Assembly: GCA_900768305.1 (NCBI GenBank)
Contig: CAAGCJ010000035.1
Location: 21,357 to 85,356 of the forward strand
Reading direction: 5' to 3'
Source of the DNA: an uncultured Oribacterium sp.
Lineage (GTDB): Bacteria > Bacillota > Clostridia > Lachnospirales > Lachnospiraceae
Length of the DNA stretch: 64,000 nucleotides
The notes under the pieces were generated by a model. That model saw only the letters and a program-made list of their open reading frames with translations. It was not told the DNA's origin and did not search any database. A program made the position numbers and the translations under genes. Every line of letters begins with the position of its first letter. Positions within the stretch are counted from its first letter, which is position 1. Of this stretch, positions 18,713 to 18,807 are shown in pieces.

Positions 18713-18807
18713 GCGCGGATGAGACGTAGTCATCGTTCGGGCAGGGGGCCCCTCTGCCTGAACAGTTACAGACAGCCGGGACCCCGAAAAAAGTTTTAAA
18801 TTAATGC

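Follow-up and report, generated by a model that had tools for sequence, protein, structure and literature searches.

The locus at 18729-18769 raises the question of what a short conserved box, GAACAGTWA, represents where it recurs after GC-rich hairpins in a bacterial chromosome segment. The whole stretch of DNA analysed (64 kb, about 55% G+C; the window below) contained RNase P class A, a T-box, tRNA-Pro and three tRNA-Glu genes. Its nearest relatives were Oribacterium gut metagenome contigs and MAGs (these and the other sequences compared are given here by their L numbers); L108 was about 94% identical to the window in the flanking DNA. The initial annotation had seen in the box and its hairpin a 3'-end element of REP-like architecture. 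The comparisons described here indicate that the box is, with high probability, the terminal repeat of a family of MITEs, DNA transposons without a transposase of their own, which are moved in trans by an ISBst12-group-like DDE transposase of the IS66 family that is encoded in a single ORF.

Copies of the box and of its hairpin in the window

The recurrence of the box was confirmed: every sequence quoted in the initial annotation was present at its coordinates, and GAACAGTWA was enriched, with four matches (3631, 18760, 33347 and 44193) against 0.26 ± 0.46 expected; none of 100 shuffles of the window attained four. The exact CTGAACAGTTAC was found at 3629 and 18758. A profile of the element end, built from other genomes only, recovered 40182 (E 1.5e-5), 18746 (E 5.6e-4) and 54360 (E 2.8e-3), together with weak matches at 3626 (E 0.3) and 21986 (E 3.8).

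The box did not stand as an independent 3'-end motif. It was one half of an inverted pair: a 3' terminal inverted repeat of consensus CTGAACTGTTAC, whose 5' partner was GTAACAGTTCAG, and degenerate 5' partners were present at 3585, 18729, 33293, 43933 and 54345. At 18729-18769 the box paired with its degenerate 5' repeat, and L133 and L137 carried there the variant GTTCAGGCAGGGGACCCC, nearer the family consensus. The full-length form was a near-perfect hairpin of about 260 nt, of which the window contained two copies (35398-35649 and 43933-44202), and the “GC-rich hairpin plus box” sites are internally deleted 34-64-nt derivatives of this hairpin (Table 1). The boxes reported after larger palindromes were accounted for in the same way, that at 44193 as the 3' foot of the hairpin at 43933-44202 and that at 33347 as the 3' repeat of the 64-nt element. 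The second full-length copy, at 35398-35649, had lost its box and was missing from the earlier list of copies.

Table 1. Members and remnants of the repeat family in the window (fold z, folding z-score; E, profile match)
Feature	Position	Strand	Sequence features	Scores
Decayed 56-nt mini-element	3585-3640	+	5' end GTAACAGTTAAA, 3' end CTGAACAGTTAC; hairpin fold lost	
41-nt mini-element (site that raised the question)	18729-18769	+	GTCATCGTTCGG / GCAGGGGGCCCCTCTGC / CTGAACAGTTAC	E 5.6e-4, z -3.4
Possible degenerate derivative (weak membership)	21962-21998	+	hairpin GGCGAG...CTCGCC, then CTGAACTGTCTT	E 3.8, z -2.9
63-nt fragment of an autonomous IS66-type element end	28563-28625		ATAACAGTTCAGCC...GGAAGTTTGATGCTGCTCCTCAT; box on - strand	
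64-nt mini-element, both terminal repeats	33293-33356	+	TTGCTGTTCACTCG...CGAGCGAACAGTAAC	fold z -5.3
Full-length long-hairpin element (~250 nt)	35398-35649	+		dG -164 kcal/mol, z -17; nhmmer E 1.9e-80
34-nt derivative, 3' end kept	40179-40212	+	GAGGCCCC TCC GGGGCCTC TGC CTGAACTGTTGT	E 1.5e-5, z -3.8
Solo 5'-repeat-like remnant	43900-43918	+	GATACGGTTCAGCCAGGAC	weak profile match, E 2.8
Full-length long-hairpin element (~270 nt)	43933-44202	+		dG -176 kcal/mol, z -18; nhmmer E 2.1e-87
52-nt mini-element	54345-54396	+	GTAAGTGTTCAG ... GCCGCCCCCTCCAGGGCCCCCTGG CTGAATGCTTAC	E 2.8e-3, z -3.6

Hairpins were verified at 18729-18769, 33293-33356, 40179-40212 and 54345-54396 (fold z from -3.4 to -5.3) and at 21962-21998 (z -2.9), but the copy at 3585-3640 did not fold (z +0.3). 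Restriction of the box to the + strand was true of the four exact GAACAGTWA matches and was broken by the - strand box at 28563-28574. The full-length copy at 35398-35649 started at the aroA stop codon and ended before a tRNA-Glu promoter, with unrecognisable terminal repeats; its orthologous copy in L108 was 98.8% identical. The other full-length copy was located between divergent RNase H and HAD genes, its GAACAGTAA box at 44193 pairing with TGTTCA at 43938, and the solo remnant lay directly upstream of it.

The reported position just 3' of stop codons held at five sites (2-21 nt past the stop codon) but not at 18729, 63 nt past the stop codon and beyond a canonical terminator, nor for the copy at 43933, which lies between divergent genes. 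Several copies were also located 14-41 nt upstream of good -35/-10 promoters (e.g. the promoter at 18808). Both positions would suit a shared signal for termination, 3' processing or mRNA stability, or an operator bound by a transcription factor ahead of the promoter. However, the sites lacked a U-tract and a scan called none of them terminator-like, with real terminators elsewhere; a separate canonical terminator was present at 54400-54431, downstream of the 52-nt mini-element. A fixed-distance operator was rejected because the promoter distances varied (14, 39 and 41 nt). With one copy between divergent genes, unbiased orientation in 58 copies, and presence or absence between strains with identical flanking genes, a role of this kind was judged very improbable, and the proposal of a shared 3'-processing or stability motif found no support.

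Other features were observed around these copies. Three tRNA-Glu(CTC) genes, in 92-nt tandem units (35722-35997), followed directly downstream of a full-length element and a strong promoter, and the copy at 18729-18769 was likewise just upstream of the tRNA-Pro promoter. An AT-rich palindrome with perfect 16-bp arms (TAAATTCGTATACACT/AGTTTATACGAATTTA, 44199-44231), between the 3' end of the element at 43933-44202 and the extended -10 promoter of the HAD gene, may be an operator. Another family of small repeats, CTTAAGAATTTCGTAAAGGGGTCTGACCCCATAAA, formed around the palindrome GGGGTCWGACCCC, had four intergenic copies in the window (31464-31476, 43015-43027, 43081-43093 and 52576-52588) against 0.07 expected, and a similar GGGTCTGACCCC adjoined an IS-type element in L167. 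A tandem 65-nt duplication (37110-37239, 78% identical) reached from the end of an ORF into the beginning of a pseudouridine synthase gene. Within a CobW-like GTPase gene (45147-46646), a highly repetitive coding stretch rich in His and Asp codons (CAT/CAC/GAT) was located at 46076-46336; the length of this GTPase differed between strains (424, 473 and 475 aa).

Abundance, target duplications and differences between strains

The 21-nt top of the hairpin, GAGTTTTCATAAAGAAAACTC (the apex), was sought in one genome per species and matched at least 109 stretches; among the matches listed, nearly all came from Oribacterium or Lachnospiraceae genomes. The exact apex was present in at least 105 copies in 10 Oribacterium/Lachnospiraceae genomes, and five genomes had at least 22, 17, 16, 14 and 14 copies, many of them at contig ends. 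The conserved core extended over about 220 nt, from CCCGGAGG to CCCTCCGGG, and in well-preserved copies 5'-GTAACAGTTCAG and CTGAACTGTTAC-3' were located outside it. A recognisable box was kept in only about 15 of 54 full-length copies, yet the 220-nt cores were still well conserved and paired, which counts against a model resting on the ends. The sequence CTGAACNGTNAY occurred 30 times in 739 kb of related loci selected by the apex, and about 25 of these occurrences abutted an element arm, at either end. Full-length copies were intergenic in 58 of 59 cases, and their orientation was even: 19 were co-directional with the adjacent genes and 19 antiparallel, while 11 were divergent and 9 convergent. 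No element copies were found in viral contigs, plasmids or phages, and the searchable literature held no mention of these sequences or of MITEs in Oribacterium. The identical apex was also observed within another conserved module (…GAGCGAACAAAAAG-apex-CTTTTTTTGAGCTCGT…) in L013, L087, L092, L099 and L086, contigs of Lachnospira, Eubacterium and a Bacteroidales MAG; this module had different outer arms and was flanked by A- and T-runs, resembling a bidirectional terminator.

Elements with both ends were 259-260 nt or 36-97 nt long, or 386 nt in the case of a nested insertion. Perfect 8-bp duplications flanked copies in L018, L021, L070 and L103 (GTAAATTA, around a 51-nt form, TAAGTTAC, CAATGCAT and ACTAAATT). 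Duplications were decayed or undetectable at several older copies, at some window copies and at several IS-like elements; no clean target duplication was left at 3585-3640. A candidate duplication at 43933-44202 (TTCGTGTA/TTCGTATA) was discarded because L010 carries 16 extra bases between the element end and that sequence. Short forms with both ends carry their own duplications, and therefore either moved as such or were deleted after insertion. Taken as a group, the elements were 36-270 nt long (386 nt with the nested insertion), below the limit of about 600 bp used for MITEs, no ORF fitted in them, and they combined terminal inverted repeats, target-site duplication, dispersed polymorphic copies and ends matching an autonomous IS, as MITEs do.

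These data also bear on REP/BIME-like elements kept by a RAYT (Y1 HUH) transposase, and on IS200/IS605 target sites or PATEs (palindrome-associated transposable elements). The REP-like reading of the initial annotation was correct in that the family consists of palindromic repeats scattered outside genes and has the character of a mobile element, with many copies per genome of a short GC-rich palindrome beside a fixed oligonucleotide, and in that this oligonucleotide is a recognition end; the class and the mechanism were wrong. REP/RAYT and IS200/IS605 systems make no target duplication and use a Y1 HUH transposase; IS200/IS605 elements have subterminal hairpins and no terminal inverted repeats, and insert 3' of a fixed tetra- or pentanucleotide. 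REPs are 20-40 nt long, without duplications or terminal repeats, whereas the Oribacterium family had 8-bp target duplications, true terminal inverted repeats and a master form of 260 nt, and its ends were the same as those of an IS66-family DDE element. Its targets were varied AT-rich octamers, and no gene in the related contigs examined had a Pfam annotation as Y1_Tnp. Since those systems make no duplication and depend on Y1 HUH transposases, the family was not assigned to them, and membership was considered extremely improbable.

Several sites differed between strains. The site of the 64-nt element was filled in the window, L120 and L129 and empty in L123, L124 and L125; one TATCTGATA was present when it was empty and two (33284-33292 and 33357-33365 in the window) when it was filled, the 73-nt insertion corresponding to the 64-nt element plus TATCTGATA. 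The upstream gene has its stop codon within this target, and the duplication restored it. The copy at 3585-3640 was present in L140 and L145 and absent in L143, L147 and L148; these last three carried an internally deleted copy downstream of a yebC-like gene that the window lacked. At the 40179 site, L157 had a longer partial element, and L152, L154 and L156 had a mini form in decay. The copy at 18729-18769 was fixed in the seven strains compared. In the RNase H-HAD intergenic region, L070, from a related species, had an independent full-length insertion elsewhere, with the duplication CAATGCAT.

Long and short forms were allelic at 40179, through L157, and at 43933-44202. At the latter site, L010 carried a short hairpin followed by CTGAACCGTAAG, with a deletion junction on CGGC microhomology, and five metagenome contigs with the downstream HAD gene broke inside the hairpin. 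The short form in L010 and the broken or rejoined contigs indicate that long hairpins and short “hairpin plus box” sites are alleles of one thing. In L001 (6374-6828, aligned to 43858-44289 of the window), the 3' half of the hairpin was joined to a different 5' arm, and the upstream flank was an ABC-transporter operon instead of the RNase H gene; this junction is either a recombination between two copies or an assembly chimera.

An IS66-type element with the same ends

Neither the window nor the 739 kb of Oribacterium loci yielded a transposase gene, and for this species we therefore infer mobilisation in trans. Pairs of ends 1-6 kb apart in the 739 kb of apex-selected loci were chance pairs only (around ABC-transporter and HflX genes), all-against-all BLAST of related loci for repeated long segments returned orthologous regions only, and a search for IS66 motifs in the Oribacterium loci, with possibly imprecise motifs, gave no match. 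A solo repeat end at L116:6136 and the similar window stretch 28563-28625 continued into sequence other than the MITE. A metagenome scan with the L116:6136-type continuation gave 21 loci, which were the source of the L175 and L161 elements.

The element at L182:958-3047 was 2090 bp long, with perfect ends GTAACAGTTCAG/CTGAACTGTTAC, an 8-bp duplication (TCTTCCCT) and one gene of 510 aa. That at L175:623-2772 (2150 bp, perfect ends) had one ORF of 520 aa, whose product matched PF03050 (DDE_Tnp_IS66; E 1.1e-21) and DUF6444, and a third, L161:41-2180, also had perfect ends and one long ORF. The L182 and L175 transposases were 66% identical to each other, and homologues of the latter numbered more than 1700, mostly on contigs of about 2 kb. 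The MITE and the L182 and L175 elements had identical 12-bp ends; the shared stretch was only about 12-14 nt, and the MITE is therefore not a simple deletion derivative of the IS. The window fragment at 28563-28625, which sits in the divergent promoter region of a LacI-like gene, aligned to the IS ends of L161, L175 and L116.

The same ends bounded non-autonomous elements of 413-1365 bp; L177, on the same contig as L068 (an Oribacterium MAG), contained a non-autonomous derivative. Repeated short hairpins on ATCGTGCCTACGGTT-like units were observed in two IS-type non-autonomous elements (L116:6300-6520 and L035:55-180). A further element with the same terminal repeats (L168:1284-3568, 2285 bp) had, in place of a transposase, genes for an AbiEii toxin (PF08843) and a DUF6088 protein, and is thus a mobile cassette carrying a toxin-antitoxin pair of type IV. 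Like mobile insertion cassettes, this element, located outside the window, carries passenger genes within the ends of an IS; its only bearing here is that non-autonomous cargo of several kinds is mobilised by the same ends.

For classification, the ISBst12 group was taken as defined by a single DDE_Tnp_IS66 ORF, ends starting GTAA and an 8-bp duplication (PMC12898284). The autonomous partner corresponded to this definition, with one ORF of 510-520 aa in 2.09-2.15 kb, PF03050 and the 8-bp TCTTCCCT. ISDge4 of Deinococcus geothermalis, an IS66 element of this group, has the ends GTAACTGCTCAGCA / GTGACTACTCAGCA and an 8-bp direct repeat (PMC12898284); its ends matched the terminal repeat of the family at 10-11 of 12 positions, and it shares with the family the end pattern GTAAC-N-G-Y-TCAG and with the partner the single DDE_Tnp_IS66 ORF. 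Unlike ISDge4, the window elements are gene-less, with only 12-14 terminal bases in common with the IS, and the L182 and L175 autonomous copies are new sequences from gut metagenomes, distinct from ISDge4.

A mechanism may be proposed from these comparisons. The transposase would recognise the 12-bp ends 5'-GTAACAGTTCAG...CTGAACTGTTAC-3' and make an 8-bp staggered cut in AT-rich intergenic DNA, leaving the 8-bp duplication. The master form, of about 260 bp, forms a long hairpin because its two halves are complementary, and deletion across the palindrome would give derivatives of 34-100 nt in which a short GC-rich hairpin is followed by the box; derivatives that keep both ends could still move. 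Transposases of the L182/L175 type presumably move the MITEs in trans, and the short forms probably arise by slippage across the palindrome. The repeat family is real and active but of an ordinary kind, and not surprising in principle. A model that depends on the terminal repeats alone has no need of a core with strict covariation and conserved asymmetric loops, and mobilisation by the ends leaves both unexplained.

The hairpin core and the significance of the family

In the core alignment, 48 of 80 consensus pairs showed compensatory double changes, against 27.6 in shuffles, and 96.6% of the cells were paired, against 85.1% in shuffled alignments and 34-47% with partners slid. The asymmetric internal loops and an 18-nt bulge were conserved in 50 of 50 copies. 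Almost no G-U intermediates were present; G-U (50) and A-C (47) mismatches were equally frequent, so there was no strand-specific RNA signature. A strand-specific RNA was rejected so far on this symmetry and on the orientation counts. Orthologous copies and their mostly coding flanks had similar divergence (about 0.96 and 0.96). In Rfam, the whole window had no match that reached the gathering threshold, and the two long hairpins, compared under an E-value threshold, gave only chance miRNA-like hairpin matches.

The long hairpin could be considered to have its own function as a structured nucleic acid, the transposon ends being only its vehicle: an RNase III-processed RNA by which the stability of adjacent mRNAs is tuned, or a single-stranded DNA or cruciform used in transposition or in host-protein binding. 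The compensatory changes and the pairing above both controls speak for such a function, as do the invariant loops and bulge, the conservation of the core even where the box was lost, the divergence of orthologous copies no faster than that of mostly coding flanks, and the identical apex in unrelated long-hairpin elements of other genera. However, orientation relative to transcription was unbiased, the flanks had no conserved promoter, Rfam gave no family, and copies were dispensable between strains. Moreover, subfamilies derived from few master copies can mimic covariation, and the statistics above ignore shared descent. An independent function of the hairpin was, on this evidence, considered rather unlikely, and a MITE moved through its ends remains the preferred reading.

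The pairing pattern is consistent with selection on a DNA-level or strand-symmetric structure, and also with spread from few diverged master copies. A tentative and rather unlikely extension of the MITE reading is that the 220-nt core is a selected strand-symmetric hairpin and not filler, its covariation, invariant loops and shared apex reflecting a structural requirement. Such a core might be a folded single-stranded DNA or cruciform intermediate of the IS66-type transposase, or a site for a host protein or RNase III exploited by the element.

Hairpin-forming bacterial MITEs include Correia/NEMIS (Neisseria), RUP (Streptococcus pneumoniae) and ERIC (enterobacteria). Like these, the Oribacterium elements are small, non-coding, multi-copy and intergenic, occur in either orientation, have terminal repeats matching an IS, fold as a hairpin over their whole length, include internally deleted and nested variants, and are predicted to be co-transcribed with neighbouring genes. 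Unlike Correia and RUP, which duplicate TA, they have the repeat GTAACAGTTCAG and an 8-bp AT-rich duplication, and their partner belongs to the IS66 family instead of being IS630/Tc1-like. They also differ in the unusually long stem (about 120 bp) with conserved asymmetric loops, and in derivatives of 36-64 nt that are still flanked by duplications.

The family is of use in annotation: it accounts for a class of hairpins between genes of Oribacterium and its Lachnospiraceae relatives, and likewise for breaks of contigs and a probable mis-join in assembled metagenomes. Its insertions beside stop codons, promoters and tRNA genes are polymorphic within one gut species, and the copies are usable as strain markers and are possible modifiers of the expression of neighbouring genes. 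To our knowledge, the mechanism of IS66 transposition is still poorly characterised. The elements form a natural substrate set of 36 to 2150 bp, including the AbiE cassette, with the same 12-bp ends, from which the cis requirements of an ISBst12-type transposase could be defined. If the core is indeed selected, the family would be a structure-dependent MITE, and would be informative on that mechanism.
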